64,000 bases of DNA, from NCBI GenBank assembly GCA_041658485.1, contig JBBAAE010000001.1, positions 11,889 through 75,888 of the forward strand. Reading direction: 5' to 3'. Below the pieces are notes generated by a model. It had not been told where the DNA came from. It made no database searches and worked only from the letters and a program-made list of their open reading frames with translations. This stretch comes from Minisyncoccota bacterium (GTDB lineage: Bacteria > Patescibacteriota > Minisyncoccia > Phycocordibacterales > Phycocordibacteraceae). The stretch's first letter is position 1. Each line of letters opens with the position of its first letter. Of the stretch, positions 9,262 through 62,930 are shown piece after piece. A program made the translations under genes and the position numbers.

Positions 9262-9297
9262 ATTTTTCCAAACACTAAATACTAATCACTAATCCAT

Positions 9298-9927: not shown

Positions 9928-11304
9928 TCAAACGAGAGGAATTTCGTATGTCTCACCCTCTCTCGGTACATCAACGGGAATATTAAGGAATCCTGCGATT
10001 CGTTGTGCTAAAAATGTCGCTGACTCTGTTTCCCCCAATATTACAAAAACATGCTTAGGGTTAACATTTTCAGCAAAGGTCATAAGATCATCTCTGTCGG
10101 CGTGTGCAGAAAATCCGTCCGTTGATAGTATTGTTGCTCGCACCTTAACTTCAACCCCATCTATATTTACTGTCCGTGCACCATCCTTCAATCTTCGTCC
10201 TAAACTCCCTGGCACCTGATAGCCCACAAGCAAGAGCGCGGTCGACTTCTGTGGAAGATACTTCGCCTCATGCCTTCTAATACGCCCACCGTGGCTCATA
10301 CCAGCCCCTGCGATGATTATTTTAGGACCGGGGTGTTTGTCTATTGCCTCCGACTCGTCTGGGTGGACACTCACTTTTAAACCTGGGAATGAAAATGGAT
10401 CGTCTCCGCCGAGAAGTCGAGCACGTATATCAGCACGAAGAAATTCTGGATGCTTTCTGTACACATCAGTTACTTTTGCAGCAAGAGGTGAATCCATAAA
10501 TACTGCTACTTCGGGAATAACGCCGTTAGTAATTGCCTTATCTAAAGAAGCAAGAATTATTTGTGTGCGTTCAAGTGAAAATGCAGGTATAAGAAGCGTA
10601 CCTTGGTTGACAATAATAGCTTTAACAGCTGACAAGAGTGCCTGCTCACTTTCTTCAAGTGAGCTGTGTGTTTTATTACCGTATACGCTTTCTGTTATAA
10701 GGTATTCCACATCGGCAGGCACTTCCCTATCGGGCACAAGAGCGGCAGGCACACGACCTAAATCTCCTGTAAACAAAATTTTCTTTCCAAAAATATCAAG
10801 AAGGATAGTGGCGGACCCTAAAATGTGTCCAGCATTGTGAAATGTTGCAGTAATTCCAGACGCAAGCTCTAATACTTTCCCATATGTTGCTTCATCAATG
10901 TATTCAACTGCCCGTATAACATCTTCAGTGGCGTACGGCGGATCATCGTTACACCGCTTTGCTTCGAGTGCGATTATCTTTACGGAGTCCTCAAGCATTA
11001 TTGGAATAAGCGCTTTAGTTGGGGCCGTTGCAAACGCACGGCCTGTAAAGCCATCCTTTATGAGCTTAGGGAATAATCCAATGTGATCAGCATGTGCATG
11101 CGTAAAAAATACAGCATTAATAGTTGCGGGGTCATATGCAAATGTTTCTCTATTTGTTGATTCGCAGAATCGTTCGCCTTGCGCGAGCCCACAATCAATA
11201 AGTATGCGTGTGGTAACCTCTCCGTTCTTTGCTTCTACCAGAAAATTTGAACCCGTGACACGCCTCGCACCTCGTGCAAACAAAATAGAAATCGATTTTC
11301 CCAT
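9928..11304 (-). CDS. MBL-fold beta-CASP family ribonuclease (RNase J / CPSF-like)
   Basis: 458 aa with the HAHADHIG metallo-beta-lactamase motif followed by beta-CASP-like and C-terminal RNA-metabolising domain architecture. Confidence 0.7.
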   Translation of the reverse strand: MGKSISILFARGARRVTGSNFLVEAKNGEVTTRILIDCGLAQGERFCESTNRETFAYDPATINAVFFTHAHADHIGLFPKLIKDGFTGRAFATAPTKALIPIMLEDSVKIIALEAKRCNDDPPYATEDVIRAVEYIDEATYGKVLELASGITATFHNAGHILGSATILLDIFGKKILFTGDLGRVPAALVPDREVPADVEYLITESVYGNKTHSSLEESEQALLSAVKAIIVNQGTLLIPAFSLERTQIILASLDKAITNGVIPEVAVFMDSPLAAKVTDVYRKHPEFLRADIRARLLGGDDPFSFPGLKVSVHPDESEAIDKHPGPKIIIAGAGMSHGGRIRRHEAKYLPQKSTALLLVGYQVPGSLGRRLKDGARTVNIDGVEVKVRATILSTDGFSAHADRDDLMTFAENVNPKHVFVILGETESATFLAQRIAGFLNIPVDVPREGETYEIPLV

Positions 11305-11391
11305 ACCTTGTATAGTAGCAAACGCATCTGTATATACATGAAAAAAATAAAACTCGCCAAGGACGCAAGCGCCTCGCGAGTCTATTGAGAA

Positions 11392-11545
11392 GGGTCACTG
11401 ACGGAGTATTAACCTTAGAGCCGAAGCTCCAGGTGGGTGCTCGCAACATCTCGTGCGTCGGATTCTCCGGAGAGATTCACCAGCATGGAGTGATATAAAG
11501 CTCCCTAAAGTTTTTCAACGAGGTTAATACTCCGTCACTAACCCC
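11392..11545. ncRNA. Candidate structured RNA or MITE-like element: ~150 nt enclosed by a 22-bp helix formed between a 5' arm and a 3' arm
   Basis: GGGTCACTGACGGAGTATTAACC(TT) at 11392-11416 pairs with GGTTAATACTCCGTCACTAACCCC at 11522-11545 (18 continuous bp plus 4 outer bp). The ~100-nt interior holds several local hairpins (GAGCcgaaGCTC, TCTCcggaGAGA). It sits in the 310-nt gap between the GNAT stop and the beta-CASP start. Identity unknown; I could not match SRP, 6S, tmRNA or RNase P. Confidence 0.3.
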
Positions 11546-11563
11546 TCCTTAAGCGTAGCACGC

Positions 11564-11600
11564 TGTCAGCTTACAGCTTATAGCTTATAGGTTTCAGCTT
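11564..11600. repeat. Short tandem repeat (CAGCTTA x3, then TTCAGCT x2)
   Basis: gtCAGCTTACAGCTTATAGCTTATAGgtTTCAGCTTTCAGgg, adjacent to the structured element. Confidence 0.5.
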
Positions 11601-11615
11601 TCAGGGAGGAAAAAT

Positions 11616-12065
11616 TCATTCCCTAAGCAAGGTCATCACAATTCTTGGCTCGCCATCCCCAAAATAATTCTCTTTGAGCTCGCCAACTTTAAATCCAAAT
11701 GATTTATAGAGATTTAAAGCTTTTATATTTTCTGGATGCGTCACCAGCCATACCACTGACCCAATCTCCACATTCGAAAGAATCCCCTCAACCGCTTCGC
11801 GCGCAATACCCTGCCCTTGAAACTGGGGATCAATAGCAAAATTGGAAAGATACATCTCCTTCTTATTTGTATCCTCGCACGAGATAAATCCCGCGATCCT
11901 TCCTTTGCTTCTTATTGAGTAGGTCTGGCCTTTTTTAATATGTATAGCGAGTGCCTGTGGATCTGTAAAAGTAGAGAATGCCTTACTCTGCACCTTTTTT
12001 CCTATCACGATATATTCGTCTATGTCCGCATCAGTGGCTGTTTCTAATGTGATTCTTTTTTCCAT
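11616..12065 (-). CDS. GNAT family N-acetyltransferase
   Basis: 149 aa with the acetyl-CoA-binding motif region QFQGQGIAREAV. Confidence 0.8.
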   Translation of the reverse strand: MEKRITLETATDADIDEYIVIGKKVQSKAFSTFTDPQALAIHIKKGQTYSIRSKGRIAGFISCEDTNKKEMYLSNFAIDPQFQGQGIAREAVEGILSNVEIGSVVWLVTHPENIKALNLYKSFGFKVGELKENYFGDGEPRIVMTLLRE

Positions 12066-12105: not shown

Positions 12106-12717
12106 CTATTCCATTATTCCATCCAAATTCACGTCGTAGAGAATCTGTTCCTGCACAATACGATATTTCAAAATCTCTTCAGGCTTGAACCATACGGCAA
12201 TTTCACGTGATGCTTCTTCAGGACTTTCAGAACAATGAACGAGGTTTCTGACGGCACGGCTTTGTACAGAAGAATGGTCATACGAGTCCACAGTGTAGTC
12301 ACCGCGGATAGTACCCACATCCGATGTCTTTGGCTCTGTTGCACCCACAAGCTTCTTCACAACGGCTACTGATTCATTCCCTTCAACAACCATCATGAGT
12401 ACAGGACCTGCGGTCATGAATTTCACTATTGAGTCTATTATTTCTTTACCGTACCCGAGCGCATCCTTCTCTATTGGCAGGTTGTGCGTGGTGCGGTCAT
12501 TTAATATTCGAGTTCCTTTTTCAAGAAACCACTTCTCATCTTTATTGTAGTGACGCACAAGTTGGTCTTCCGTGGCAAGGCCAAATTTGAATGCAACAAA
12601 TTTCAACCCTGTTCTCTCTATCCGCTTCATTATCTCGCCGATAAGCGAACGCTGTACTGCGTCAGGCTTCAATATAATGAGCGTGCGCTCATTCTCAAAT
12701 TGTGCATTAGTGTTCAT
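12106..12717 (-). CDS. ndk: Nucleoside diphosphate kinase with N-terminal extension and internal insertion
   Basis: ERTLIILKPDAV, GPVLMMVVEG, TIRGDY and NLVHCSES motifs of NDK. 203 aa against a typical ~140. Confidence 0.85.
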   Translation of the reverse strand: MNTNAQFENERTLIILKPDAVQRSLIGEIMKRIERTGLKFVAFKFGLATEDQLVRHYNKDEKWFLEKGTRILNDRTTHNLPIEKDALGYGKEIIDSIVKFMTAGPVLMMVVEGNESVAVVKKLVGATEPKTSDVGTIRGDYTVDSYDHSSVQSRAVRNLVHCSESPEEASREIAVWFKPEEILKYRIVQEQILYDVNLDGIME

Positions 12718-12740: not shown

Positions 12741-12851
12741 GCTTTAGTGGCTAGGGTTTAGCGTTTAGGGGAGAACGAATTGAAAAATCCTGATCCCTAC
12801 GAATCCGACGAAGCATCGTCTAAACCCTGACCACTAAACGCTAGCCCCTAG
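12741..12851. repeat. Pair of inverted G-triplet repeat units (GGGTTTAGCGTTTAGGG family) flanking a 47-nt spacer
   Basis: Left unit ctttagtggctagggtttagcgtttagggg (12741-12770); right unit ctaaaccctgaccactaaacgctagcccctagc (12819-12851). Lies between the TraD-like stop and the ndk start. Confidence 0.6.
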
Positions 12852-15733
12852 CTCTTCTGGTTCTCTCGCATCTGATTATACTTCTGGTGAATATCAGCCT
12901 CCACAGCTTCGCGGGCTCGACCGTAGCGTTGATACGAAATCTGTTTCAATGCATCAATGTTCAAGAAGTCGCCAGGGGTAAACGGGATAGTCTCAATAGT
13001 AAAACCAGGGGTAGGCTTTCCTCCAGCAAGGAGCTTTAAATATGAATGGAAGTTGTCAATTTTTAGGAAGTCGGAAACCTCAAAGTTTGGAAATTGTTTC
13101 GCAATATACTCAGCATCATCGGGACCTACACGAAACACTGCCATCGTACCAACGTTACCAAAGACCGCTTCTTTAATTTTTGGAAGGAGCTGAGAAACAT
13201 ACTGGTGCGCCATAGTCATAGAGAGACGGAATTTTCGTGCTTCTGAGAGAATTGTTGAAATAGTATCGGTCGTGATGTTCTGGAACTCGTCAATGTAGAG
13301 ATAGAAGTTTGGAGGATTCAAATGCAAATACTCAGTACGTGCAAGTGCAGTCATCATTATCTTTCCAACAATCACAAGTCCAATCAAGTTTGCATTTACG
13401 TCCCCCAGTCGGCCTTTGGACAAGTTCACAAGAAGAATCTTCTTGTTGTCCATAATATCCTTGAAATTAAAGGCCGATCGTTGCTGACCTATGATGGGGC
13501 GCATAATTTCATTTGCGATGAAGATATCGAATTTTGAGGTGATGTACGGAACCACGTTACGCAAATCTCCTTCTCCCCGCACATTTTCTGCAATGTCTTC
13601 CCAGAAGTGCGTTACCACGGGATTTTTACAGCGCGACAATTTCAATGCGCGGAACTCATCGTCAGCGAGTACTCGCGAAATATCCATGAGTGTCGAGCCA
13701 GTATCAGGATCTTCCAAAACAAGCATCGTGGCATTACGAAAATACTGCTCGAAAATAGGGCCGAACGCTTCTGGTACATCACCATATAATTTCTTGAAAA
13801 TCTTAAACATCTCGTCCACCACGAATGTTTTTTGTTCAGGGAAGCGTGGATCATACTCAAGCATATTGAGCCCCATTGGCCTTGCGGTATATGCAGGATC
13901 AAAATAAATGAGGTCGTCAATGCGATCTTTAGGAATACGGGAAAGAATCTCCAATACATCCACACCGTGTGGGTCAATAAAACACACCCCTTCCCCATTC
14001 TCAATGTCCTGAATAATCATATTCTTCAGGAAGTTCGTCTTACCAGTACCCGTTTGTCCAATGGTATACATGTGGCGCAGGCGATCATCTGGAGTGAAAT
14101 GAATTGGCGTTGCAATATTTGAGTAACGATTAATGCCGATGACAATGCCTTTCTCAGGAAGCCCTGGTGGTGCAGGAGCAAGCTTAGCGCTTGCAGTTTT
14201 GGCTTCACGAGATGCTGTACCTCCTGCAATAGTGAGATGAAAAATAGTTGAGAGCTCTGCCAAATTCATCGGCATGAGTGGAATCTTATGCATCAAAGGT
14301 GTTGGCGCAGCCTTGCGTGTCCATTCAAGCCACAGCTGATAGAAAAATCCTTCGTGTGCTTGACGGTCAAACATACGGAAAATGAACAAGCGGAGAAACT
14401 CCCGCAACTCCTTTCTACCTTTTATATGCTTAAAACGAAGGCGATTCGCTTTTGCATCTTCATACTGCCCAAAGGTATTTTCAAGTTCCGTCAAAATTGC
14501 CATTGCCCTCTCTTTGGTGCGAGCAGAGGCAACAATGCGTAAATTCACTCCCACAATGACACTCTTGAGCTTTTTTGACACTGCGTCAGCCGCAAAAGAA
14601 TCAATATTCTTACTATCATCCTTCTTTTTTTCTTCAGAGCTTTCCAAAAAACTAGTGAAGCCTTTGTTCAATCCCTGAAAAAATCGACGCATTGGTGAGT
14701 AATGCTCCATGTACATATTTTTTCGAAATATGTCATTCGCAGAACCCTTACCTTTATTAAGTTCGTCTAAAACATAGCGGATACGCTTAGAGTGATAGTC
14801 TCCTGCTGGTGCAACGGTAATTTGAAGCGCAGCCCCTTCACCTTCTTTAGTGATTTTTGAAAGTGCTGCGAGCGTCACATTCATAGGGTCGTGACTAAAC
14901 TCTTCTGATGTCTTTAAAGGAATTGGTGGCGGGCGCTGATAGTAAGCAGACGCTGCAACAGTCACACCAAATTGGTTAAAAAGATTGTAGTCATCTTTTT
15001 TTTCAACAATACGTGCGCGAGGAAACATGGCAAAAATCTGCTTTTCAAACGTTTCCCGTTTTGCTCGAGGAACTGACAAATAAAAGACCGCTTCCTCTTT
15101 AGTGTGCGAAACAGCAATTTCCATTGTGAAATGCTGAAGATGAATCTTTTTGCGCTTGTGCCAATCCTTCAGGAAAATTGTATCGGGGAGAGCAACAAAA
15201 GGAATCATGCTCAAATAAAACTGCTCCATCTGCATGCAAACATCCTTAAGAGACCCCCCTGGTTTCCCTGGCGCAGCTTCAGGTACGGCTATATCCAAGA
15301 GAACAAAATCAAGAGCTACAGCGAGTGGGTCATTAGCACTCAGCCCTGGGATTGGATGACCAGCTGTCCGGTATTGCACAAGCAGGCGATGGAAATCATC
15401 TTCAAGGTGGGGATTATCAATGCGATCGAGCTCCCTCATGACAGCCTTGAATCCTTGGGTATGCAAAATACCCAACAACTCCTCCATGTCTTTGTCGTTC
15501 GAGTCAGGTGTAAGTTCAAGAATGATGCCTTGCTTCTGCTCTTGCTCTACCCCCTCTGGTGCCTCCGAAAGTGTAGGGAGAACAGACGCTTCGACAGGTA
15601 AGGCCGGATCCCCTCGATGTCCCCTTCCCCCTCCACCCGAACGCGCGGTCTCACGCAACTTCGTCAGTTGATGCTCAGGCGAAAGTTTCGCTGCTTTTGT
15701 ATCAATTCCTTTATTAGGATTAAATCCTGGCAT
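12848..15733 (-). CDS. TraD/VirD4/TrwB-like (FtsK-HerA superfamily) P-loop ATPase with a large N-terminal domain of unknown function
   Basis: 961 aa. Walker A YTIGQTGTGKTNFLKNM, Walker B LYIDEFQNI, then ARKFRLSMTMAHQYVSQL typical of type IV secretion coupling / DNA-translocation ATPases. The N-terminal ~500 aa have no recognisable similarity and no N-terminal transmembrane helices. Confidence 0.6.
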   Translation of the reverse strand: MPGFNPNKGIDTKAAKLSPEHQLTKLRETARSGGGGRGHRGDPALPVEASVLPTLSEAPEGVEQEQKQGIILELTPDSNDKDMEELLGILHTQGFKAVMRELDRIDNPHLEDDFHRLLVQYRTAGHPIPGLSANDPLAVALDFVLLDIAVPEAAPGKPGGSLKDVCMQMEQFYLSMIPFVALPDTIFLKDWHKRKKIHLQHFTMEIAVSHTKEEAVFYLSVPRAKRETFEKQIFAMFPRARIVEKKDDYNLFNQFGVTVAASAYYQRPPPIPLKTSEEFSHDPMNVTLAALSKITKEGEGAALQITVAPAGDYHSKRIRYVLDELNKGKGSANDIFRKNMYMEHYSPMRRFFQGLNKGFTSFLESSEEKKKDDSKNIDSFAADAVSKKLKSVIVGVNLRIVASARTKERAMAILTELENTFGQYEDAKANRLRFKHIKGRKELREFLRLFIFRMFDRQAHEGFFYQLWLEWTRKAAPTPLMHKIPLMPMNLAELSTIFHLTIAGGTASREAKTASAKLAPAPPGLPEKGIVIGINRYSNIATPIHFTPDDRLRHMYTIGQTGTGKTNFLKNMIIQDIENGEGVCFIDPHGVDVLEILSRIPKDRIDDLIYFDPAYTARPMGLNMLEYDPRFPEQKTFVVDEMFKIFKKLYGDVPEAFGPIFEQYFRNATMLVLEDPDTGSTLMDISRVLADDEFRALKLSRCKNPVVTHFWEDIAENVRGEGDLRNVVPYITSKFDIFIANEIMRPIIGQQRSAFNFKDIMDNKKILLVNLSKGRLGDVNANLIGLVIVGKIMMTALARTEYLHLNPPNFYLYIDEFQNITTDTISTILSEARKFRLSMTMAHQYVSQLLPKIKEAVFGNVGTMAVFRVGPDDAEYIAKQFPNFEVSDFLKIDNFHSYLKLLAGGKPTPGFTIETIPFTPGDFLNIDALKQISYQRYGRAREAVEADIHQKYNQMRENQKS

Positions 15734-18837: not shown

Positions 18838-18864
18838 ATTTTTGCTATTTAGAAGCTACACACA

Positions 18865-18883
18865 AACGCTAGCCACTAAACCT
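18865..18883. repeat. G-triplet intergenic repeat unit (AAACGCTAGCCACTAAACC)
   Basis: Lies in the 50-nt spacer between the secY stop and the gmk start. Confidence 0.5.
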
Positions 18884-18887
18884 TGTC

Positions 18888-20159: not shown

Positions 20160-20171
20160 GGTAACCAGTGT

Positions 20172-20681
20172 TTAGCTTTTAGCTTTTAGCGAAGAGACAG
20201 CTTTCTTAGAAGGCATAACCTTCTTTGAAACAGGGGCGCGGACAGCACCTCCTGCTTTCTCAATTGTAGCTCGTGCTACTTCAGAGATGAAAACATCCTC
20301 AAAAGAGAGCTTCACGGTGAGTTCACCTCGCGCAAGAACTTTTATTGGAGGAACCTTACCGGAAATGCGTCGTACAACTCCAGCCTTTACGAGTGCGATA
20401 GGAGTAACGATATCCCCTGCCTTAAATTGTCTTGAGAGCGTATCGAAGTTCACCGTAGCAAATCTAACGCGAGGGACTGCGGTTCGAGAACGATTTCTAC
20501 CATACCCACGGCGTTTTGGAATTTTCTTGATTATATCTCGCCATTCTGGACGAAATTTTGCGCCAGCGCGTGATTTCTGACCTTTAGCACCACGACCAGA
20601 TGTCTTACCTCGTTTTCCTCCACGACCAACACGACGGCTTGTCGCATTACTCTTTGTTCGTGCCAATGTGTGAAGTTCCAT
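20172..20681 (-). CDS. rplO: 50S ribosomal protein L15
   Basis: RRVGRGGKRGKTSGRGAKGQKSRAG. Confidence 0.9.
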   Translation of the reverse strand: MELHTLARTKSNATSRRVGRGGKRGKTSGRGAKGQKSRAGAKFRPEWRDIIKKIPKRRGYGRNRSRTAVPRVRFATVNFDTLSRQFKAGDIVTPIALVKAGVVRRISGKVPPIKVLARGELTVKLSFEDVFISEVARATIEKAGGAVRAPVSKKVMPSKKAVSSLKAKS

Positions 20682-24732: not shown

Positions 24733-24785
24733 ATTGTTTTTGTTTTTGTGTTTTTCTTCTCTCCTCCCTAAAAGCTAAAAGCTTC

Positions 24786-25166
24786 TTATACTACTTCTGG
24801 CGCAAGAGAGCCAATCTTCTGATATCCCAAATCGACGATTTCGCGAGGGATTGGACCGAAGACACGATTTGCCTTTGGTTCAAAAGGATCTTTTGCATTC
24901 TTTGAAAGAATCACCACAGCATTATCATCGAAGCGAATATAGGAACCATCAACACGACGGAATGTCTTTCTTTGTCGAACTACTACCGCAGTCAATACAT
25001 CTTTTTTCTTAACCATTTTTCGTGGTTCAGCAGACTGCACAGAAAGCACTACTCTGTCGCCAATCTGAGCAATAGTTTTTTTGGAACCACCAAGCACTTT
25101 GAAAATGCGTCCAACCTTTCCGCCGGTGTTATCTGCAATGATGACGAGTGAGCGATCTTGAATCAT
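24786..25166 (-). CDS. rplN: 50S ribosomal protein L14
   Basis: MIQDRSLVIIADNTGGKVGRIFKVLGG. Confidence 0.92.
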   Translation of the reverse strand: MIQDRSLVIIADNTGGKVGRIFKVLGGSKKTIAQIGDRVVLSVQSAEPRKMVKKKDVLTAVVVRQRKTFRRVDGSYIRFDDNAVVILSKNAKDPFEPKANRVFGPIPREIVDLGYQKIGSLAPEVV

Positions 25167-27538: not shown

Positions 27539-27566
27539 TTTGTGCAACCTCCGGAGGTTGCACAAA
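27539..27566. repeat. Perfect 28-nt palindrome TTTGTGCAACCTCCGGAGGTTGCACAAA
   Basis: Read in sequence, 21 nt beyond the stop of the Y1 transposase gene. It recurs at 28301-28334. Confidence 0.85.
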
Positions 27567-27587: not shown

Positions 27588-28286
27588 TTACAAAATAATA
27601 ATGCCTTCAAGCTCCTCAGCTAAAAGTTTTTTGTTGGTTGTTTTAACAAAATCAGCGTAATTACTTTTTGCTGTTATGGCAAACTGCCCTGTAATGATTT
27701 CGGGCACTATGAGTCCTCCCCATCGGTTTGCATCAGTAAAATCTTGGAGCGACGACCAAGGATATTCAAATTCCTTTCCTGACCATTCTCGTGTATCACG
27801 AGGGTTTCTATGAATGTAGGCGGATGTGTAGAGAAGTTGAGAGTCTGTCTTTACATGCACCGCTTTATACGGACCCTGAAATACATGCCCAGTGGCGTCA
27901 TATTTAACATTATAATATTTTGTATATCCATCAGACACACGTTGCATATAGCGTGCGATTCCACCTTCAATAGTTTCTTTGACCAGTAAGTGAAAATGGT
28001 TGGACATCAGACAAAAACAAACCACTTCTACAAAACGACTCTCGATAATGGACTCGATATCTTCGTTAGGAACAGAAAAACCAATATCCGGAACAAAACT
28101 TTCCGTAATGCGATGTATATTTTTAAACTCGTGCGGGGATTGGAGAAACAGCACATTAAAAAGGAATCGCCGCCAATCGTTTTTTTCTTTAAAAACCGTT
28201 TGTCGGTGAGCTCCGCGATTAAAAATATGGTAGTACTCCCCTGGAGCAATTCCTTCTCGCGATTTTAGTAATACTTTAGGCATCAA
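27588..28286 (-). CDS. IS200/IS605-family (REP-associated tyrosine transposase, RAYT-like) Y1 transposase
   Basis: 232 aa. EYYHIFNRGAHRQTVF opening block, CLMSNHFHLLVKE (HuH motif), GHVFQGPYKAVHV with the catalytic Tyr region. This is the typical Y1_Tnp / RAYT layout. Confidence 0.75.
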   Translation of the reverse strand: MMPKVLLKSREGIAPGEYYHIFNRGAHRQTVFKEKNDWRRFLFNVLFLQSPHEFKNIHRITESFVPDIGFSVPNEDIESIIESRFVEVVCFCLMSNHFHLLVKETIEGGIARYMQRVSDGYTKYYNVKYDATGHVFQGPYKAVHVKTDSQLLYTSAYIHRNPRDTREWSGKEFEYPWSSLQDFTDANRWGGLIVPEIITGQFAITAKSNYADFVKTTNKKLLAEELEGIIIL

Positions 28287-28300
28287 TGTAGACTAACACG

Positions 28301-28334
28301 CCCCTTGTGCAACCTCCGGAGGTTGCACAAGGGG
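28301..28334. repeat. Second copy of the palindrome, extended: CCCCTTGTGCAACCTCCGGAGGTTGCACAAGGGG
   Basis: Read in sequence, 15 nt upstream of the transposase start codon. It has the same 24-nt core as the copy at 27539-27566. Confidence 0.85.
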
Positions 28335-28360: not shown

Positions 28361-31300
28361 TTAAAACTCGTCGAAGCGCGGAGTAACACCTATGGTCACT
28401 GACTTTGAACTCGGAACCCCACCGGTCAAACAATTCATTGTGTATGTACTTTGTTGATTTATGATCACAGATTGTGCGCCTGAAAAAGCTGTTGAAGAAA
28501 GCCCAGGGCCAGAAATCGAACAAGAGTCAGGAGTGCCCACCACTCCCCATGACACCGTTGCAGGGTCGCCTTGGCGAACAGTAACGGCTGGGCTAATGCT
28601 GAGAGCAATATCAGCAGGGTTTACAGTAACTGTTGCACTTGAAGATGCACTTCTCGTACCGTTTGTACAAGTGATGCCGTAGGTTGTAGTAACTGGAGGG
28701 GAAACAGTAACCGAACCAACGGTTGCACTCCCTGTTGGGAAGTTAGTTCCTGTACAAGAAGTGGCGTAAGAAGATGTCCAGTCAATGCGTGGAGAAGTTA
28801 CACCTTTAATTATTACGTTTGGTGTAACAGTAATGAGCACCGTGGGAGTGTTCTGTATAGTTCCCGCTGCACATGTCGCAGTAACTGACCCTGCACCTGA
28901 GGTCACAATAACTGAAGCCGATTTCGTACCGGCAGTAGCGTATGTTTTCGAGACAGTTACACCTGTGCCGAGAAGTCCGTCAGTGCCACTCCAGACATAT
29001 GTATATGAACCTACACCACCAGAAGGTGTGACGGTCCACGTTAATGAATCTCCCACATACCCAGTACTTGGTGATGGAGAACATGATGCTGTCACTGCAC
29101 CCGGGTTTACAGTTAATGATGTCCATACACTACAGTTATCAAGCTCATTGGATTCGTTCACTTCATTGAGTGGTGTATCAGCACAAAAACGCATCTGGTA
29201 CGAACCCGGTGAAGGAAATGTGTAGCTTCCTGTTTGAGTACCACTGCCCCCAGCTACAATCGATATTCGACTTAAAGCAATTTTAATTGACGTATTGGCT
29301 TCCGCAAAATTAATAAAGAAACTAAAGATGCGACTCCAAATAGAGTCTGACTTGGTGAGATAATTATTGAGACAAGCACTGTCCGAAGTGAGACACACAT
29401 ACATCCTTGAACCAAAAACTGGAGTCGCTGCCCCACCACGATTAGTAACGCCAGCGGTAAATGTGGTATTTACTCCCGCAGTTACACTGGCAGGAGAGAG
29501 AGACCCTGTAGTTAAATCCGCCAAAGAAACACCAACTACAACAGAGTTTGAACAACTCGCCGTAACTGATGCATTCGATGCAGTTGCCATACCTGCCAAA
29601 TAATTATGTCTCGTTGTACTACCGCTCGTTGAGGTTTTCGAGGCAAGAGAAGCATTCGAATATGCTTCGTAGCGATAGTAGGTATTAACAGGTTGCCCAG
29701 CTGAATTCAAAGTCTCTCGCACATCAACACTACAGCAACCGCCTGCTGGGGTTATACCTGCGCACACTCCTGCCATAGAGCTAGTGTTGAGAGTAAATCC
29801 AACACCATCCTCGGTAGTACCATAACTACCTACTTTCGTACCTCCAGAACAATGCTTTTCCCCTTGAAGCGTAACAGAAGTTGCGCCGGAAGGGCTAGTG
29901 ATAGTGATTGAGGCTGTTTTTGTACCGACAGTTGTATATGTTTTTGAAATAGATGCAACGGCACCCGAGAGACTATCAGTACCACTCCATGAATACGTGT
30001 ATGAACCGGCTCCACCCCATGCAGAGGCAGTCCAAGTTACAGGACTACCGGTGTATACACTTGTTGGCGATACTGAACATGACCCAGAAAGAGCGCCGGA
30101 GGAGGTTGAATTTACTTGAACATTTGCGGTAGCGAAAGCGGTCTGAGGAGTCACGGCAGGAGAGGCGCCGACACATGAATAGATATCAGTATTGATGCTG
30201 CATGCACTGATGGTGTTCACCTTACACGTTGGGATACTACAAGTCTTTCCTGTTGGATTCGAAGGGCAAGTTGGTACGCTTGAATATGCCTTGTTTGGAT
30301 CTGTGAGCGGGCAAGCAAAATCACTTATATCAGACTCTGAATATTGCCATGTACCTGACGATACTGCGCTAGCTCCTGTACAGGTGATGGAGTAGTTTGT
30401 ACTAGCACTTAACGCTCCGGTAGAAATAGAGCCTGATGTATTCCCGCCAGTTTCAAATCCACTACCAACACAAGAAACTGCATTAGTTGAGGACCATGTG
30501 AGAGTAGCGGAAGATCCAGAATTCAAACTTGTTGGAGTTGCAGAGAGTGAAACCGTTGGCGAAGGGATTGAACTTACAGTGACCGTTTGGGATGCCGCCG
30601 CAGAACCGCCAGCGCCAGTACATGAGACAAGATAACTTGTTGTTTGCGATGGGATAACTGTTACAGAGCCTGCAGTTGCCGACGCTGTCGAAAAATTGGT
30701 TCCTGTACAGGAAGTTGCGTTCGTTGAACTCCAAGTAATAACTGACGAGGCACCTGCGACAAGAGAGGTTGGATTTGCAGAGAGCGTTGCCGTTGGCGCT
30801 GCAGGAAGATTCACGGTCACCGTCCGAGATGCAGACGCAGAACCACCAGCGCCAGTACATGAAACGAGGTAACTGGTTGTTTGTGACGGGACCACCGTTA
30901 CGGAACCTGCAGTTGCTGATGCTGTCGAAAAGTTAGTGCCCGTGCAGGATGTTGCGTTAGTTGAACTCCAAGTTATTACCGATGATGCACCTAATATAAA
31001 GGAGGTTGGATTTGCAGAGAGTGAGGCAGTTGGGGCAACAACAGGAGCACTGACAGTCACCGTTGCGGAAGAAGAAATTGTCTGGGCACCATCGGTACAG
31101 GTAATTAAGTAGGCTACTGAAGAAGATGGTGAGACAATAAGCGAGCCTGAAGTAGCGCCACTAGTTGAAAAATTAGTGCCCGTACATGAGGTTACATAGT
31201 CCGAACTCCATGTTAAAAGAGACGAACCTCCACTAGTTATGGAAGCAGGTGTCGCAATAATTCCAACATACGGCGCTGTTGGCTCTTCGATACAACCCTC

Positions 31301-31597
31301 ATCCATGTCGCCAACAGTTGCGGTCTGATAGGCACTTTGCACTGTATAACTATCTCCACCATACACTGCATAAAAGGCCGCGGCACCTCCACTGCCCGGG
31401 GGGAATGGATTAGTTACTACAGTGTAGGAGTATTCCCATATCGAACCACTACACCCTCCGACACCACCTCCTCCACCATCCATGTTTGGTGCAGCGTATA
31501 CCGATTGAGGAATTATACTGAGTACCGCAACTACAAAGACAGCAACCACAAAAAAGCTTTTAAAAGTGCGGGCAACAAACTGGCGGAAGGCTATCAT
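28361..31597 (-). CDS. Giant secreted Thr/Ser-rich repeat-domain protein (surface or S-layer-like candidate)
   Basis: 1078 aa. Signal peptide MIAFRQFVARTFKSFFVVAVFVVAVLSIIPQSVYA, followed by poly-Gly. At least six copies of a ~75-90-aa module (xTPTSLxxGxSSxxTWSSTNATSCTGTNFSTxxATxGSxTVxPSQTTSYxVxCTGAGGS). A Cys-rich central module (GTWQYSESDISDFACP...CKVNT...YSC). PKD-like GSYTYSWSGTD modules. Many N-x-S/T sequons. C-terminal tail ...PRFDEF. Confidence 0.8.
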   Translation of the reverse strand: MIAFRQFVARTFKSFFVVAVFVVAVLSIIPQSVYAAPNMDGGGGGVGGCSGSIWEYSYTVVTNPFPPGSGGAAAFYAVYGGDSYTVQSAYQTATVGDMDEGCIEEPTAPYVGIIATPASITSGGSSLLTWSSDYVTSCTGTNFSTSGATSGSLIVSPSSSVAYLITCTDGAQTISSSATVTVSAPVVAPTASLSANPTSFILGASSVITWSSTNATSCTGTNFSTASATAGSVTVVPSQTTSYLVSCTGAGGSASASRTVTVNLPAAPTATLSANPTSLVAGASSVITWSSTNATSCTGTNFSTASATAGSVTVIPSQTTSYLVSCTGAGGSAAASQTVTVSSIPSPTVSLSATPTSLNSGSSATLTWSSTNAVSCVGSGFETGGNTSGSISTGALSASTNYSITCTGASAVSSGTWQYSESDISDFACPLTDPNKAYSSVPTCPSNPTGKTCSIPTCKVNTISACSINTDIYSCVGASPAVTPQTAFATANVQVNSTSSGALSGSCSVSPTSVYTGSPVTWTASAWGGAGSYTYSWSGTDSLSGAVASISKTYTTVGTKTASITITSPSGATSVTLQGEKHCSGGTKVGSYGTTEDGVGFTLNTSSMAGVCAGITPAGGCCSVDVRETLNSAGQPVNTYYRYEAYSNASLASKTSTSGSTTRHNYLAGMATASNASVTASCSNSVVVGVSLADLTTGSLSPASVTAGVNTTFTAGVTNRGGAATPVFGSRMYVCLTSDSACLNNYLTKSDSIWSRIFSFFINFAEANTSIKIALSRISIVAGGSGTQTGSYTFPSPGSYQMRFCADTPLNEVNESNELDNCSVWTSLTVNPGAVTASCSPSPSTGYVGDSLTWTVTPSGGVGSYTYVWSGTDGLLGTGVTVSKTYATAGTKSASVIVTSGAGSVTATCAAGTIQNTPTVLITVTPNVIIKGVTSPRIDWTSSYATSCTGTNFPTGSATVGSVTVSPPVTTTYGITCTNGTRSASSSATVTVNPADIALSISPAVTVRQGDPATVSWGVVGTPDSCSISGPGLSSTAFSGAQSVIINQQSTYTMNCLTGGVPSSKSVTIGVTPRFDEF
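30590..31130. repeat. Near-identical in-frame tandem DNA repeats (~270 bp, about 90% identity) inside the giant gene
   Basis: Two successive ~90-aa modules (...SLSANPTSFILGASSVITWSSTNATSCTGTNFSTASATAGSVTVVPSQTTSYLVSCTGAGGSASASRTVTV / ...TLSANPTSLVAGASSVITWSSTNATSCTGTNFSTASATAGSVTVIPSQTTSYLVSCTGAGGSAAASQTVTV) encoded by nearly identical DNA. Confidence 0.6.
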
Positions 31598-44332: not shown

Positions 44333-44346
44333 ATTTAGCTAGCCAG

Positions 44347-44404
44347 TAGGGTATAGGGTATAGGGTAACAGCATTAAAATCTAGTGGCTAAACCCTAGTG
44401 GCTA
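44347..44404. repeat. (TAGGGTA)x3 tandem plus a CTAGTGGCTAAACCCTAGTGGCTA unit of the G-triplet repeat family
   Basis: Divergent spacer between the site-2 protease and the TrmH-family methyltransferase. Confidence 0.55.
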
Positions 44405-44430
44405 ATGACTGCCGATGCTACACTCGCACT

Positions 44431-47301: not shown

Positions 47302-47351
47302 ACTGACAATGATATAATGCCACCGAGGCTAGTAGCCATTCAGAAGATATT

Positions 47352-47380
47352 CACCTAAACGCTAACCACTACCCCCCTAG
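47352..47380. repeat. G-triplet family repeat unit (CACCTAAACGCTAACCACTACCCCCCTAG)
   Basis: Divergent spacer between the ComEC-MBL gene and sod. Confidence 0.5.
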
Positions 47381-47385
47381 TTCAT

Positions 47386-47961
47386 ATGTACACTGCAAAA
47401 AAATTCACCTTCGGAAACTTGGATGGTATTTCACCCAAGCAACTTGAAGTACACATCAAACTCTACGAAGGGTATGTAAAATTCCTGAACACTCTTGAGG
47501 AAACTGTTGCGGATCTAAAAAAAGACTCTGAAAAAAATGCCTACGCCCTCGCTGAAGTTACGCGTCGCATCGGCTTTGAATGGAATGGTATGCGCATGCA
47601 TGAACACTACTTCGCACAGTGGGAAGGAACACCTTCTCCTATTGAAGGAGCACTTAGAGATGCACTGGCAGCGCAATACGGCAGTTACGAAAAATGGGAG
47701 AACGAATTCAAAGCAGTCGGAATGATGCGTGGCATTGGTTGGGCAATACTTTCATACGATGCCACAACTAAGAATTTTCTTACTCACTTCGTTGCCGACC
47801 ACGAACTAGGACAACTCAACGACACAAAAACAATCCTTGCTCTCGACATGTGGGAACACGCCTATATGGTGGATTACATTCCTGCAGACAAAAAACAATA
47901 TATAGAAGCGTTTTTTAAGAATTTGAATGGTGCTTCGATCCAAGTGCGATTTCCTTCCTGA
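47386..47961 (+). CDS. Fe/Mn-type superoxide dismutase family protein (divergent)
   Basis: C-terminal DMWEHAYMVDY (Asp and His ligands), WNGMRMHEHYF, N-terminal EVHIKLYEGYV. Several second-sphere His residues are substituted. Confidence 0.7.
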   Translation: MYTAKKFTFGNLDGISPKQLEVHIKLYEGYVKFLNTLEETVADLKKDSEKNAYALAEVTRRIGFEWNGMRMHEHYFAQWEGTPSPIEGALRDALAAQYGSYEKWENEFKAVGMMRGIGWAILSYDATTKNFLTHFVADHELGQLNDTKTILALDMWEHAYMVDYIPADKKQYIEAFFKNLNGASIQVRFPS

Positions 47962-49324
47962 ACCGGAACACCAACAAGCCTACAGTTGCATACAAAAACC
48001 CGAGCACCATTAAAAGTGGCCACATCCACTCTCGTGGAATAGGGAGCGATGCAAACGGCAATGAGCCGAAAAATGTTGCTATAGAAATAATATAGGAAAG
48101 AATTCCATAGCCGAGAATACTTAAGGGGAAAGCGAATATCGGCGAGAGAAGTGCAGTAATCGATGCGAAAAATCCAACAAACATTGCAATCGGAACTGCA
48201 GGAAGAACCAAAACATTAGCGGGCAAAAAAACTAATGACACCGCTCCGATAGAAAATATAAGAAGTGGTAACACGGTCACTTGTGTTGCCAGAGTCGTCG
48301 ACACAATTTCCCGAAACGGGAAATATTTAAAGTCAGGAATGAACTTCAAACGACTCGCGATTGTTTCAGAGAAAAGTATAAGTCCGAGCGTTGCAAGAAT
48401 GGAGAGTTGGAATGAAAGGTCATAGAGAACGATGTACGGATTCCACAAAGCCATCACCGCCGCCGCAATTGCGAGCATGCGGAGTGCTACTTTTGGTCGA
48501 TGCAACACAGTAGCAACCATCATTAAGAGCGCCATGATGAGGGCTCTGATTGTAGTCTCGGAGCCACCGGTCATGATCGCAAAGCCAATAACAAAAAGTG
48601 CAGAGAAGCCGTATGCAACAGTTCGTGGAAATATTTTTAAAAATATAAATAAAATCCATTGAATAACCAGCGCGACATTGTATCCAGAGAGAACAATAAT
48701 ATGTATCACACCGGCACTTCGAAAGAATCCTGTTATTTTTTCACCTAACGATTGTTTTTCACCAAGAAGCAAGCCAGCAAGAAGTGCAGATTGAGGTTCT
48801 GGCACTGCGCGCTCAATTCCTTTAATAAATAAATGTTTAACAGATAGAAGCCCTGCAACAATTACATTTCCCTCCCCAGTTCTGAGTTTCGTAACCTGCG
48901 GGAATGAAATTGTGTAGAAAATACTATGCGCACGAAGATACTTTGGATAATTAAATGTCCGTCCTGAGTCAGTTTCAAATGGTTCAGGCTTTTTAAGTTT
49001 TCCTTTTACACTAACGCGATCCCCATAGACGGCCGTCTCAAACGAATCCGCAAAGAGAAGTACTCTCACTTTTTCTGCAACAGAAACACCATTCAACTTT
49101 TCCACTTTCACAACAAGATGTGTGGTGCGTTCACGCTGGTCGGGGTCTCTCACCACTACACCCTCGACAACGACACTAGTATCAACTGAATCTTCAAAAA
49201 TCGAAGGAAATTTTTCAGGCACAAGGACTGAATACGCCCCTGCACCAATAACAACCGCGATACAAAGTAGCGGTACGAAATTTCGAATTAAAAAGTCCCT
49301 TAAAAATTCTGTATGATATATCAT
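47915..49324 (-). CDS. comEC: ComEC/Rec2 DNA-uptake channel protein (N-terminal DUF4131 plus competence domain only)
   Basis: 469 aa. N-terminal transmembrane and OB-like region, then a polytopic domain with LLAGLLLGEKQSLGEKITGFFRSAGVIHIIVLSGYNVALV. It lacks the MBL domain, which is encoded separately at 46465-47301. Confidence 0.75.
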   Translation of the reverse strand: MIYHTEFLRDFLIRNFVPLLCIAVVIGAGAYSVLVPEKFPSIFEDSVDTSVVVEGVVVRDPDQRERTTHLVVKVEKLNGVSVAEKVRVLLFADSFETAVYGDRVSVKGKLKKPEPFETDSGRTFNYPKYLRAHSIFYTISFPQVTKLRTGEGNVIVAGLLSVKHLFIKGIERAVPEPQSALLAGLLLGEKQSLGEKITGFFRSAGVIHIIVLSGYNVALVIQWILFIFLKIFPRTVAYGFSALFVIGFAIMTGGSETTIRALIMALLMMVATVLHRPKVALRMLAIAAAVMALWNPYIVLYDLSFQLSILATLGLILFSETIASRLKFIPDFKYFPFREIVSTTLATQVTVLPLLIFSIGAVSLVFLPANVLVLPAVPIAMFVGFFASITALLSPIFAFPLSILGYGILSYIISIATFFGSLPFASLPIPREWMWPLLMVLGFLYATVGLLVFRFRKEIALGSKHHSNS

Positions 49325-49364
49325 ACAGAATTTTTAAGGGAGGAATATAAAGACATACTGGGAA

Positions 49365-49784
49365 TCAAATGCCTCTATCCATTGCTTCGTTTGCAAGAGC
49401 GTCCGCTTCACTATTTTCTTCGCGCGGTATGTGCATAAATTTTATTTGAGGAAATGATTCAGCAATGAGTACACGCACTTTTGTGTGCTGTTCTTTAAGT
49501 ACTGGATGCTTCACTTTGTATTCGCCTTTCATCTGTCGAACAATTAATTCTGAATCCATTCTCACAATCACCTCGTGCGGTACCGGCGTTCCAAACGAAT
49601 CAACCGTTGCTCTAAGTGCCAAAATGAGTGCTTCATACTCTGCCCAATTATTAGTACGCACGCCTAAGAATGCTGAGATGCTCGCCGCATTCTTCCCTTT
49701 CAAATCTTTTACGACAGCACCAGCGCCCGACGGTCCGGGATTTCCTCGCGAACCTCCATCGGTATAAATAATCACATGTGACAT
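49365..49784 (-). CDS. rnhA: Ribonuclease HI
   Basis: VIIYTDGGSRGNPGPSGAGAV...TNNWAEYEALILAL...EENSEADALANEA. Confidence 0.85.
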   Translation of the reverse strand: MSHVIIYTDGGSRGNPGPSGAGAVVKDLKGKNAASISAFLGVRTNNWAEYEALILALRATVDSFGTPVPHEVIVRMDSELIVRQMKGEYKVKHPVLKEQHTKVRVLIAESFPQIKFMHIPREENSEADALANEAMDRGI

Positions 49785-49975
49785 TGGGGCATTGTATCGC
49801 ACAGTTTAATGTATCCGCACTAAACACACTTTAGTATTTTGCAAAAAACTAAAGTGTACAAATGTGGAGATTGAGAGTGTCTGTATACTACTTTGACAAA
49901 ATAATATATTTAAAGCATAATCATGACTCTGGAATTTTGAAATAACTTCTAATTTGTAATAAAAATTTAATTTAT

Positions 49976-52570: not shown

Positions 52571-52681
52571 TACAAGCTATGGTAGCATTTTGGAAAGAAA
52601 GCTTTCAGGTTCCAGGTGTCAGCTTTCAGCTTTGAATTAAAAGAAGCTGGAACCTAAAAGCTGGCAGCTAACAACTAACTT

Positions 52682-54970: not shown

Positions 54971-54995
54971 CGAGAAATCGTAACACGATTGAGGA

Positions 54996-55059
54996 GGGTT
55001 TAGTGGTTAGCGTTTAGGGGTTAGTTTTCTCTAAACACTGCCCACTAAACGCTAAACCC
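54996..55059. repeat. Inverted pair of G-triplet repeat units separated by 6 nt
   Basis: gggtttagtggttagcgtttaggggttag / ctaaacactgcccactaaacgctaaaccc, between the tpiA start and the downstream gene stop. Confidence 0.6.
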
Positions 55060-55064
55060 TTTTG

Positions 55065-56246: not shown

Positions 56247-56270
56247 AAACCCCCGTGCACTTCTTATGCT

Positions 56271-56306
56271 CCCCCCTAAACTCTCCCCCCTAAACGCTAA
56301 ACCCTG
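56271..56306. repeat. G-triplet family repeat unit (CCCCCCTAAACTCTCCCCCCTAAACGCTAAACCCTG)
   Basis: Spacer between the prepilin gene stop and the 55065 gene. Confidence 0.5.
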
Positions 56307-56962: not shown

Positions 56963-57347
56963 CTTTCACTACCTTATAATCATTCCCACCTACGCCATTC
57001 GCTCCATCATCCTTATATGTCACAACCGTTCGAAGTGTGTACGGAATATTATTAATAAGTCGTGATTCAGTAGATACTAAAATTCCTGAAGGAGTACCAC
57101 TAACAGTCCCAACGCTCGCATACGGAAGTCCTCTCACATACTCGACAGTACTCGCAATAAGCGCACTCGCATTTGTGCGCGACGCAATACTTTGCACTAA
57201 TGTAGCGGATGCCGCATATGCACCAAAAAAGCCTAAAAAGATTACGAGCATAAGGGAGACGGCAACAATCACTTCAATGAGTGTCATTCCCCGAGAAGTT
57301 TTCTCCCGTCTTTCCGCACACCTGACACCTGACACCTGACACCTCAT
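56895..57347 (-). CDS. Prepilin-type N-terminal cleavage/methylation domain protein (type IV pilin)
   Basis: Leader ...KTSRG followed by MTLIEVIVAVSLMLVIFLGFFGAY, a canonical G | (F/M)TLIE class III signal. The leader codons contain a (GGTGTCA)x3 tandem. Confidence 0.65.
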   Translation of the reverse strand: MRCQVSGVRCAERREKTSRGMTLIEVIVAVSLMLVIFLGFFGAYAASATLVQSIASRTNASALIASTVEYVRGLPYASVGTVSGTPSGILVSTESRLINNIPYTLRTVVTYKDDGANGVGGNDYKVVKVEASWNIRGFSHSMSAVTYVAP

Positions 57348-60363: not shown

Positions 60364-60391
60364 TCTTTGGTAAGAATAACATTGCGAAGCA

Positions 60392-60426
60392 GGGTTTAGC
60401 GTTTAGGGTATAGGGTTTAGTGGAGG
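60392..60426. repeat. G-triplet family repeat (GGGTTTAGCGTTTAGGGTATAGGGTTTAGTGG)
   Basis: About 30 nt upstream of the pilB start, in a divergent spacer. Confidence 0.55.
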
Positions 60427-60602
60427 AAAATTAGAAATGAAAAAAGAAAATGAAATACTAAGAAGAAAAAAATTCAAGATGGTGCAAAAAATACCAAAAA
60501 GTGCCACTAAAAATGCCTAGAAAGAAGTACTTGACAGAATGATTTAAGTGTAGTACCCTACTCATATTAGAAATCCCAGAAATTTATTGCATAAAATTAC
60601 AT

Positions 60603-61090: not shown

Positions 61091-61119
61091 AAAATGGAGA
61101 GAAACTCAATCTTTCTTAT

Positions 61120-61153
61120 CCCTAAACACTAGCCACTAAACGCTAACCCCTAA
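61120..61153. repeat. G-triplet family repeat unit (CCCTAAACACTAGCCACTAAACGCTAACCCCTAA)
   Basis: Ends 6 nt before the nusA start codon. Confidence 0.55.
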
Positions 61154-62368: not shown

Positions 62369-62398
62369 ACCCTTTACACTAACCCCTAAACGCTAACG
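62365..62398. repeat. G-triplet family repeat unit filling the nusA-ppa spacer
   Basis: CTAAACCCTTTACACTAACCCCTAAACGCTAACG. Confidence 0.55.
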
Positions 62399-62401
62399 AA
62401 T

Positions 62402-62926
62402 ATGAATCTTTGGCACGATATTGATCCAGGAACTGCAGACGAAATGAATGCGGTTATTGAAATCCCAAAAGGGTCGCATAACAAGTACGAGATCGACAAA
62501 GAGACGGGCATGCTTGCGCTCGATCGAGCTAACTATGGCTCAGCGCCATACCCATTCGAGTACGGTTTTATTCCAAAAACATACTGGGACGATGGCGACG
62601 CACTGGATGTCGTACTGCTCGCAACATTTCCAATTCCTTCTGGAATGCTTGTTCGTATTCGCCCTGTAGCATTTATGGAAATGATTGATGCGGGAGAGAA
62701 TGACTACAAAATTATTGGGGTGCCAATAAAAGACAAGCGCTGGGATGATGTACACGACCTCGCCGATATCAACAAACATACACTTAAAGAAATAAAAAAC
62801 TTCTTTGAGACCTACAAAGACCTCAAGGGAGAAACGGTGACTGTACCTAGTTTTAAAGGTGCGGCAGACGCAAAAACTGCCTTTGAGCGCGGAAGAAAAC
62901 TTTACGACGAAAAATTCGCAAAATAG
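62402..62926 (+). CDS. ppa: Inorganic pyrophosphatase (family I)
   Basis: VIEIPKGSHNKYEIDKETG...DGDALDVVLL...IIGVPIKDKRWD. Confidence 0.9.
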   Translation: MNLWHDIDPGTADEMNAVIEIPKGSHNKYEIDKETGMLALDRANYGSAPYPFEYGFIPKTYWDDGDALDVVLLATFPIPSGMLVRIRPVAFMEMIDAGENDYKIIGVPIKDKRWDDVHDLADINKHTLKEIKNFFETYKDLKGETVTVPSFKGAADAKTAFERGRKLYDEKFAK

Positions 62927-62930
62927 CCTC

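Follow-up and report, generated by a model that had tools for sequence, protein, structure and literature searches.

As a mimic of an open promoter, 6S RNA binds the sigma-70/sigma-A holoenzyme, and the short pRNA that the polymerase copies from it rearranges the RNA and leads to release (PMC9130861). In E. coli, the 6S RNA gene, ssrS, is placed upstream of fau/ygfA on the same strand (PMC9130861). A relative in architecture, the Ms1 RNA of Actinobacteria, also folds into a hairpin like that of 6S RNA, has a central bubble and binds RNA polymerase, but it measures about 300 nt and carries extra hairpins at both ends (PMC9130861). Ms1 was found by means of its structure and synteny, its sequence conservation being weak (PMC9130861).

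The window analysed here, a 64-kb stretch of DNA, contains a small intergenic element that, on the strength of sequence and structure comparisons, is very probably an ssrS-type gene for a divergent 6S RNA, encoded on the minus strand of a Parcubacteria (CPR/Patescibacteria) bacterium. The ultra-small CPR/Patescibacteria account for a large share of bacterial diversity and have tiny genomes with few known regulators. The RNA is best described as one of a divergent group, apparently not reported before, within a very well-known RNA family, and a full-text literature search returned nothing on 6S RNA in CPR, Patescibacteria, Parcubacteria or Saccharibacteria. The one paper in that search to mention both “6S RNA” and “Patescibacteria” deals with SRP in mitochondria.

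The Element and Its Coding Strand

The element consists of a 27-bp closing helix around approximately 105 nt and is located between a GNAT acetyltransferase gene and a gene for a beta-CASP ribonuclease (Table 1). The non-coding gap between these two open reading frames measures 311 nt (11305–11615), in line with the figure of 310 nt given by an earlier note on this DNA. The arms of the inverted repeat (11389–11415 and 11521–11547) are 27 nt long and 89% complementary. The repeat was thus correctly recognized in that note, although its perfect core is 17 bp long (11399–11415 with 11521–11537) rather than 18 bp. The 16-mer arm GGTTAATACTCCGTCA has two matches in the 64 kb, which are the two arms themselves, where 0.33 would be expected. 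The small interior hairpins that had also been described are present, GAGCcgaaGCTC at 11421–11432 and TCTCcggaGAGA at 11466–11477.

The earlier note described the element on the plus strand, an orientation that the folding energies contradict. The minus-strand fold has an energy of -76.4 kcal/mol (z = -7.5; -75.8 in the other MFE computation), which none of 200 shuffles equalled, whereas the plus-strand fold reaches -64.1 kcal/mol (z = -5.5). In addition, two C.A mismatches in the outer helix of the plus strand are G.U pairs on the minus strand only. Because of the lower folding energy and these G.U pairs, the transcribed strand is the minus strand, as it is for both flanking genes. This orientation was absent from the earlier note, as were the RNA's own promoter and its own terminator.

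Table 1. Features of the putative 6S RNA gene and its surroundings, with positions in the window
Feature	Position	Strand	Basis
Predicted extended -10 promoter, TGCTACGCT	11552–11560	-	sequence; comparison of loci
Structured core of the putative 6S-type RNA, 162 nt	11387–11548	-	models R1/R2, RF00013 alignment, MFE
Closing stem, 5' strand	11521–11548	-	pair table; partner 11388–11415
Closing stem, 3' strand	11388–11415	-	pair table and covariation
Central bubble, 5' strand, CGUUGAAAAACUUUA, 15 nt	11506–11520	-	unpaired in consensus structure
Terminal (apical) stem	11435–11505	-	pair table; apical hairpin 11462–11478
Central bubble, 3' strand: ACC (11434–11432) and small hairpin	11416–11434	-	covariation of helix 6
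Predicted intrinsic terminator, stem CUCGCGAGG/CCUUGGCGAG, then UUUUAUUUUUUU	11341–11380	-	terminator scan
Beta-CASP metallo-beta-lactamase ribonuclease gene (CPSF73/aCPSF-like)	9928–11304	-	Pfam Beta-Casp, RMMBL, Lactamase_B; NCBIfam
GNAT (RimI-like) acetyltransferase gene	11616–12065	-	Pfam and NCBIfam
ndk (nucleoside diphosphate kinase), conserved upstream neighbour	12106–12717	-	Pfam NDK
Heptamer tandem tract, CAGCTTA-like	11567–11604		TRF: period 7, 5.4 copies, 83% matches

A Conserved Rod-like Fold

Two blocks of the RNA, GGGAGY...A.ATC and TGCGR.CACCCACCU, are invariant among relatives, and the helix arms vary. Joined into one motif (GGGAGY...A.ATC...TGCGR.CACCCACCU), these blocks are found at no fewer than 120 loci in metagenomes, and about 43 of the motif matches listed represent the CPR-type RNA. 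Two covariance models were built. Model R1 derives from the window and the related loci L001 and L002 only, and was used to align 33 other sequences; model R2 derives from 33 CPR sequences, the window not being among them. The window core scores 185.1 bits with R1 and 129.8 bits with R2 (E = 8e-26).

Across 33 independent homologues, 89.9% of the pair cells hold standard pairs, compared with 62.3% in column shuffles and 39–46% in slid controls, in which the partners were moved by 1–3 columns; the alignment was fitted to R1 and consequently favours the R1 structure, but the slid controls fall short of it by a wide margin. Changes on both sides are seen in 53 of the 58 pairs, and the covariation score is 0.558 vs. 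0.166. Compensatory changes extend to every pair of the closing stem (helix 1, 28/28 pairs, 90.8% of cells paired). Helix 2, at the base of the terminal stem, is 100% paired, with GGG:CCC invariant in 33/33 homologues; helices 3–5 covary, and helix 6, the hairpin in the 3' bubble strand, is 81.9% paired, with five of its six pairs covarying. When eight homologues were aligned with MAFFT and folded with RNAalifold, the closing stem was lost, since indels in the 3' bubble had put the 3' strand out of register; the covariance-model-based alignment took the place of this one. RNAalifold predicts the same architecture independently.

The modelled fold is rod-like, with a closing stem of 27–28 bp, a 5' bubble strand of about 15 nt, an ACC and a 6-bp hairpin on the 3' side, and a terminal stem with an invariant GGG-A-GCY/RGC-A-CCC base. 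In the window, the closing stem comprises 27 pairs and one G.G mismatch at 11538/11398, the base of the terminal stem pairs GGG-A-GCUU (11505–11498) with GAGC-A-CCC (11442–11435), and the 3'-bubble hairpin reads UGGAGC-UUCG-GCUCUA (11431–11416).

A long, near-perfect inverted repeat around some 105 nt in an intergenic gap is also what a miniature inverted-repeat element (MITE) would look like, the 23–27-nt arms then being its terminal inverted repeats, and the earlier note had proposed this as one of two alternatives. It is by now an extremely improbable one. The arms vary by compensatory changes and the interior loops are invariant, the reverse of the pattern of a MITE. The flanks, ...TTGAGAA and TCCTTAA..., form no target-site duplication, and a distant blastn search of 72,556 plasmids returned no match. 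The search for further copies that the earlier note had asked for found one syntenic copy at a fixed locus and none elsewhere in the window. Related loci likewise hold one significant copy each, the sole second match among them being a weak R1 match at L158 (16.4 bits, E = 0.4). Even relatives with no more than 38–65% identity in the flanking proteins carry the element at this locus and in this orientation, with ndk on one side and the beta-CASP gene on the other. It is the other alternative of that note, a structured RNA gene, that agrees with a single syntenic copy and abundant compensatory changes across CPR bacteria.

Relationship to 6S RNA

At gathering score, Rfam recognizes no family anywhere in the 64-kb window. 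A local scan of 431 nt aligns the window RNA with RF00013, the 6S family, at 13.5 bits (E = 1.7) over model positions 1–187, compared with a gathering score of 46.4 bits, and no other Rfam family aligns with the element from end to end. In this alignment, GGGAGC and GCACCCACCUGGA line up with the consensus GGGagc and gcaCCCACCUgga, at the upper-case positions on either side of the central bubble. The Rfam consensus has 16 unpaired positions where the window RNA has its 5' bubble strand. The Rfam covariance scan that the earlier note had called for thus yields nothing at gathering, and a full-length 6S alignment below it. That note had named 6S RNA and reported no match to it, but 6S was dismissed too early, the 6S signature motif being common to the element and to Rfam-certified 6S RNAs. 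Among the homologues, the Saccharibacteria sequence L008 has RF00013 as its top match, full length, at 18.2 bits (E = 0.05), and a local Rfam scan of L003 gave no 6S match.

The link to certified 6S RNAs comes from the motif. Rfam was used to check 40 motif loci, 11 CPR-type and 29 others. None of the 11 CPR-type loci gave a 6S match in the 54-kb Rfam scan. The 29 others comprise 18 with a 6S RNA at or above gathering (49–92 bits), 10 with a sub-threshold 6S match (26–39 bits), and one without a 6S match. Over the window and the CPR-type loci scanned, no model of the current Rfam release captures the CPR-type RNAs.

The 18 certified 6S RNAs were compared with the CPR-type RNA in both directions. 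Model R2 matches 18/18 of them full length, at 33–51 bits and inside the Rfam 6S coordinates, and an HMM of the 18, which uses sequence only, finds exactly one site in the window, at 11510–11408 on the minus strand (E = 4.4e-10); the 18 were picked via the shared motif, and part of the R2 and HMM scores follows from this selection. When placed on the CPR structure, the certified 6S RNAs have 85.6% of cells paired, compared with 62.5% in shuffles and 34–43% in slid controls, with helix 2 100% paired and helix 6 87.5% paired. Model R2 gave no match against E. coli ssrS, and the CPR clade is therefore tied to gammaproteobacterial 6S RNA only via intermediate 6S RNAs.

About 22 specified bases, together with their spacing and structural positions, are common to the element and the certified 6S RNAs. 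Homology would appear to be the only credible explanation for these common bases, for the bubble geometry and for the 3'-bubble hairpin; no credible alternative was seen.

Other RNA classes were considered as well. A tRNA/tmRNA scan of the window found nothing. SRP RNA, RNase P RNA, tmRNA and Y RNA gave no Rfam signal and no signature motifs, and no Ro/TROVE gene lies nearby. The Rfam families P37 and 6A match weakly (E of at least 1) and on the terminator or low-complexity spacer only.

A Probable Stand-alone Gene with Its Own Predicted Promoter and Terminator

The predicted extended -10 promoter contains the hexamer TACGCT at 11557–11552 on the minus strand, and the predicted transcription start, at AGGGG around 11546–11544, is right by the closing stem. 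A TAnnnT hexamer, often preceded by TG, ends 1–10 nt before the model start in 47/49 homologous loci, with a peak at 1–4 nt. A generic sigma-70 scan that also requires a -35 element found no promoter for the RNA gene because no -35 element is present. Downstream of the core, a GC-rich hairpin with a T-run follows in at least 39 of 48 homologous loci under a strict rule, and most of the loci that fail this rule show a hairpin and T-run by eye. In the window, promoter and terminator are about 200 nt apart, and across the family the model span is 120–162 nt, with a median of 145. The RNA gene is thus probably a stand-alone unit, consisting of a predicted extended -10 promoter, a core of about 162 nt and a predicted intrinsic terminator.

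At most loci, the RNA shares the strand of the beta-CASP gene, directly precedes it and is followed by an intrinsic terminator, as would be the case if it were a leader or riboswitch-like attenuator regulating the beta-CASP gene in cis via that terminator. This is nevertheless very unlikely. The closing stem pairs both ends of the RNA, leaving no strand free to compete with the terminator, which is a separate hairpin, and the spacer between terminator and gene is 40 nt in the window but about 160–560 nt elsewhere. The window and many homologues have a -10-like box after the terminator and ahead of the start codon; in the window it is TGCTACTAT (11312–11320), 7 nt before the ATG. Because the beta-CASP gene has this box of its own, the RNA is a separate unit and not a leader. 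In addition, there are CPR-type copies without a detected downstream beta-CASP gene, such as L107, L174 and L197, no Rfam cis-regulatory family matches, and the RNA that is matched, both in sequence and in fold, is 6S RNA.

Directly upstream of the promoter, and outside the RNA, lies a tract of heptamers that forms part of the context of the RNA gene. The earlier note had recorded a (CAGCTTA)3 microsatellite; the tract exists, but instead of a perfect triplet it has two perfect CAGCTTA units plus variants. At other CPR loci, too, heptamer tracts precede this RNA gene, with different units. The outer GGGG/CCCC ends of the element had been likened to dispersed repeats in the window. The GGGGTY 5' end is kept in homologues whose genomes have other repeat units, and the likeness therefore looks coincidental.

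Neighbouring Genes and Host

Among the GTDB species genomes, the closest relative of the beta-CASP protein is that of “Parcubacteria group bacterium Greene0714_7” (95% identity), followed by Kaiserbacteria, Paceibacterota, other Patescibacteria and a Saccharibacteria MAG. To judge from these relatives, all of which are CPR, the host is a Parcubacteria/CPR bacterium. The RNA lies upstream of the beta-CASP gene and on its strand in L001–L008, where the identity of the protein is 46–95%; the copies in L001–L007 were found by blastn/nhmmer and that in L008 by model R1.

The order ndk, RNA and beta-CASP gene, all on the same strand, recurs in dozens of CPR loci, including those of Kaiserbacteria, Paceibacterota and Saccharibacteria. 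Out of 51 CPR-type loci, 45 have room for ndk and 41 for the beta-CASP gene; the former is found upstream on the same strand in 39 of these, and the latter downstream on the same strand in 35. The GNAT gene is missing from the corresponding position in 51/51 related loci, even in the 95%-identical L001, and since it is never present there, it is a local, lineage-specific insertion between ndk and the RNA gene.

A Possible Mechanism and an Alternative Role

By analogy with known 6S RNAs, the central bubble would mimic an open promoter and capture the holoenzyme of RNA polymerase with its housekeeping sigma factor when nutrients or NTPs are scarce. A rise in NTPs would then allow the polymerase to copy a short pRNA from the 5' bubble strand, the predicted template, and the adjoining strand of the closing stem. 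A likely start for this pRNA would face the UU of CGUUG, conserved where the 5' bubble begins, and would give a product of roughly 5'-AACGAGGUUAAUAC. The hybrid between pRNA and 6S RNA would free the 3' closing strand, the AGGU of which could pair with the invariant ACCU of the bubble; this pairing would lengthen the 3'-bubble hairpin, collapse the bubble and release the polymerase. The folding potential of the RNA is consistent with such a rearrangement. When the 5' closing strand beside the bubble is blocked in silico, as a stand-in for the pRNA hybrid, the 3'-bubble hairpin of the window RNA gains ACCU:AGGU and the bubble collapses, and the same block extends the 3'-bubble hairpin in 29/33 homologues.

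It may be asked whether a 6S-related or 6S-like structured small RNA has been recruited to another function in CPR bacteria, binding core RNA polymerase as Ms1 does, or serving as a substrate, guide or regulator of the beta-CASP ribonuclease. The synteny with the beta-CASP RNase gene (35/41) and ndk (39/45) is unusually persistent, the RNA is far under the Rfam 6S threshold and, in model span, shorter than classical 6S, and Ms1 demonstrates that a 6S-like fold can bind another form of the polymerase (PMC9130861). Such a change of role is nonetheless unlikely, as the most conserved nucleotides are exactly the ones that genuine 6S RNAs conserve, in matching places of the structure, and both the bubble geometry and the potential for bubble collapse are retained. 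Moreover, a terminator lies between the RNA and the beta-CASP gene, and the latter has a -10 box to itself, so the linkage may reflect inherited gene order only, and Ms1 is about 300 nt long with extra terminal hairpins that are absent here. A 6S RNA in its usual role remains the preferred interpretation.

Within that interpretation, the ndk–6S RNA–beta-CASP RNase order, which deeply separated CPR lineages share, might, with little probability, be a functional module rather than inherited order, in which the nuclease matures or degrades the 6S RNA or the pRNA hybrid and NDK supplies the NTP pool that triggers release. If this were true, the module would be a compact growth-resumption switch for minimal-genome symbionts.

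A conserved 6S RNA would mean that RNA-based global control of the housekeeping polymerase has been kept in reduced genomes, and such control would suit a life in which starvation and host-fed growth alternate. In thousands of CPR genomes, annotation pipelines based on RF00013 will overlook the gene, and the motif and alignments could seed a clade-specific model. The fixed site between ndk and the beta-CASP RNase gene provides an easy landmark as well as a hint on RNA processing, and the persistence of this gene order is the only aspect from which more might follow.

Comparison with Known Systems

Like MITEs, the element has arms resembling terminal inverted repeats around a short non-coding interior. 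Unlike them, it is single-copy within the 64 kb and syntenic, lacks a target-site duplication, has covarying arms and is predicted to have its own promoter and terminator. Ms1 differs in that it binds core polymerase without sigma and has no 6S sequence signature, whereas the present RNA (120–162 nt) has this signature. The core of 162 nt in the window also has no extra terminal hairpins besides the terminator, and its host is a CPR bacterium.

The 6S RNAs of Flavobacteria are placed in a separate Rfam family, 6S-Flavo. They show by example that the 6S RNAs of a clade can diverge beyond the reach of RF00013 and require a separate model. The CPR RNAs differ from them in forming a separate group, defined by models R1 and R2, and a cmscan of the RNA region at E of up to 10 revealed no lineage-specific 6S family such as 6S-Flavo.

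The closest comparison is with 6S RNA/SsrS (RF00013) itself. The present RNA, a putative 6S RNA, differs from this family in its score (13.5 bits vs. a gathering score of 46.4), in its neighbours, which are ndk and the beta-CASP RNase gene and not ygfA, and in a closing stem that is almost uninterrupted, with 27 pairs and one mismatch. As modelled, it is also shorter, with a core of 162 nt and a family median of 145 nt in model span, compared with about 180–200 nt for a typical 6S RNA (PMC9130861). What the two have in common is the rod-like fold of closing stem, central bubble and terminal stem, a 5' bubble strand of about 15–16 nt, a terminal stem with GGG:CCC at its base and ACCU next to it on the 3' bubble strand, and a small 3'-bubble hairpin with AGGUU atop the 3' closing strand. 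In both cases, these features belong to an independent gene that ends in a terminator, with a protein gene following shortly downstream in the same orientation.

Gene Neighborhood of the 6S-Type Gene

A RimI-like GNAT gene stands between ndk and the probable divergent 6S RNA gene (6S-type gene) in the window genome only. At this position, a GNAT gene was present in 0 of 51 related loci, among them L001 and L135, whose ndk proteins are 99% identical to that of the window. The GNAT gene looks like a recent insertion, edged by the heptamer tract at 11567-11604.

The window NDK is 203 aa long, whereas an ordinary NDK has about 140 aa, and Pfam NDK matches it in two separate stretches. The split match, together with this length, suggests that roughly 60 aa have been inserted into the window NDK. 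The CPR homologues have this long form too, with tblastn matches that span 196-203 aa. Adjoining ndk is a gene whose 961-aa product contains TrwB/TraG coupling-protein domains and may belong to a type IV secretion system.

Upstream of the beta-CASP RNase gene, a -10-like box ends about 7 nt before the ATG, and comparable TATACT/TATAAT boxes lie very near the start codon in the homologous loci L005, L006, L092, L120, L133, L153, and L159. Such closeness of the boxes to the start codon suggests that the beta-CASP RNase mRNAs would be leaderless or near-leaderless.

Additional 6S-Like RNAs

The RNAs of six further loci (L102, L113, L118, L125, L177, and L182), several of which are human-gut metagenome contigs, have about 57% GC and contain the 6S-type motif. 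Their scores with the Rfam 6S RNA model RF00013, 26-39 bits, are slightly below gathering (46.4 bits), and they probably represent a further 6S clade overlooked by the Rfam threshold.

Palindromes and Tandem Repeats

The 46-bp palindrome covers the 5' end of ORF 47915-49324 (minus strand) and extends into the spacer before 49365-49802. The 40-bp palindrome lies between ORFs 62402-62926 and 63071-63817, overlapping a 133-aa ORF on the minus strand (62540-62941). Copies of the 26-nt palindrome flank a 232-aa ORF (27588-28286, minus strand) on both sides. A 1078-aa ORF (28361-31597) contains 1.8 copies of a 237-nt tandem repeat, with 82% matches.

Coordinates of genes and repeat features in the window
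Feature	Position	Sequence or unit
-10-like box with the start of the beta-CASP RNase gene	11304-11320	TGCTACTAT
GNAT gene	11616-12065	
ndk	12106-12717	
TrwB/TraG-domain protein	12848-15733	
Perfect palindrome without spacer	49296-49341	TCCCTTAAAAATTCTGTATGATA|TATCATACAGAATTTTTAAGGGA
Perfect palindrome without spacer	62930-62969	
Palindrome, two identical copies	27540-27565, 28305-28330	TTGTGCAACCTCCGGAGGTTGCACAA
Tandem repeat	30591-31021	237 nt
Heptamer tract	9273-9294	
Heptamer tract	11567-11604	
Heptamer tract	12745-12850	
Heptamer tract	18855-18887	
Heptamer tract	20162-20197	
Heptamer tract	24755-24788	
Heptamer tract	44340-44427	
Heptamer tract	47351-47376	
Heptamer tract	52600-52633	
Heptamer tract	54988-55060	
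Heptamer tract	56269-56306	
Heptamer tract	57318-57344	
Heptamer tract	60390-60436	
Heptamer tract	61115-61153	
Heptamer tract	62365-62402	

Nearly all of the short tandem heptamer tracts of the window are sited in short spacers between ORFs, usually directly 5' of a gene start and with a CTAAAC-like sense strand. Their units differ and include CTAAACG/AGGGTTT, CAGCTTA, TTTAGCT, TAGGGTA, and ACACCTG, among others. Tracts of 7-nt periodicity, built from other units, also occur upstream of the 6S-type gene in further CPR loci (L001/L135, L114, L122, L153, and L158). The window tracts are reminiscent of the STRR heptamers of cyanobacteria.
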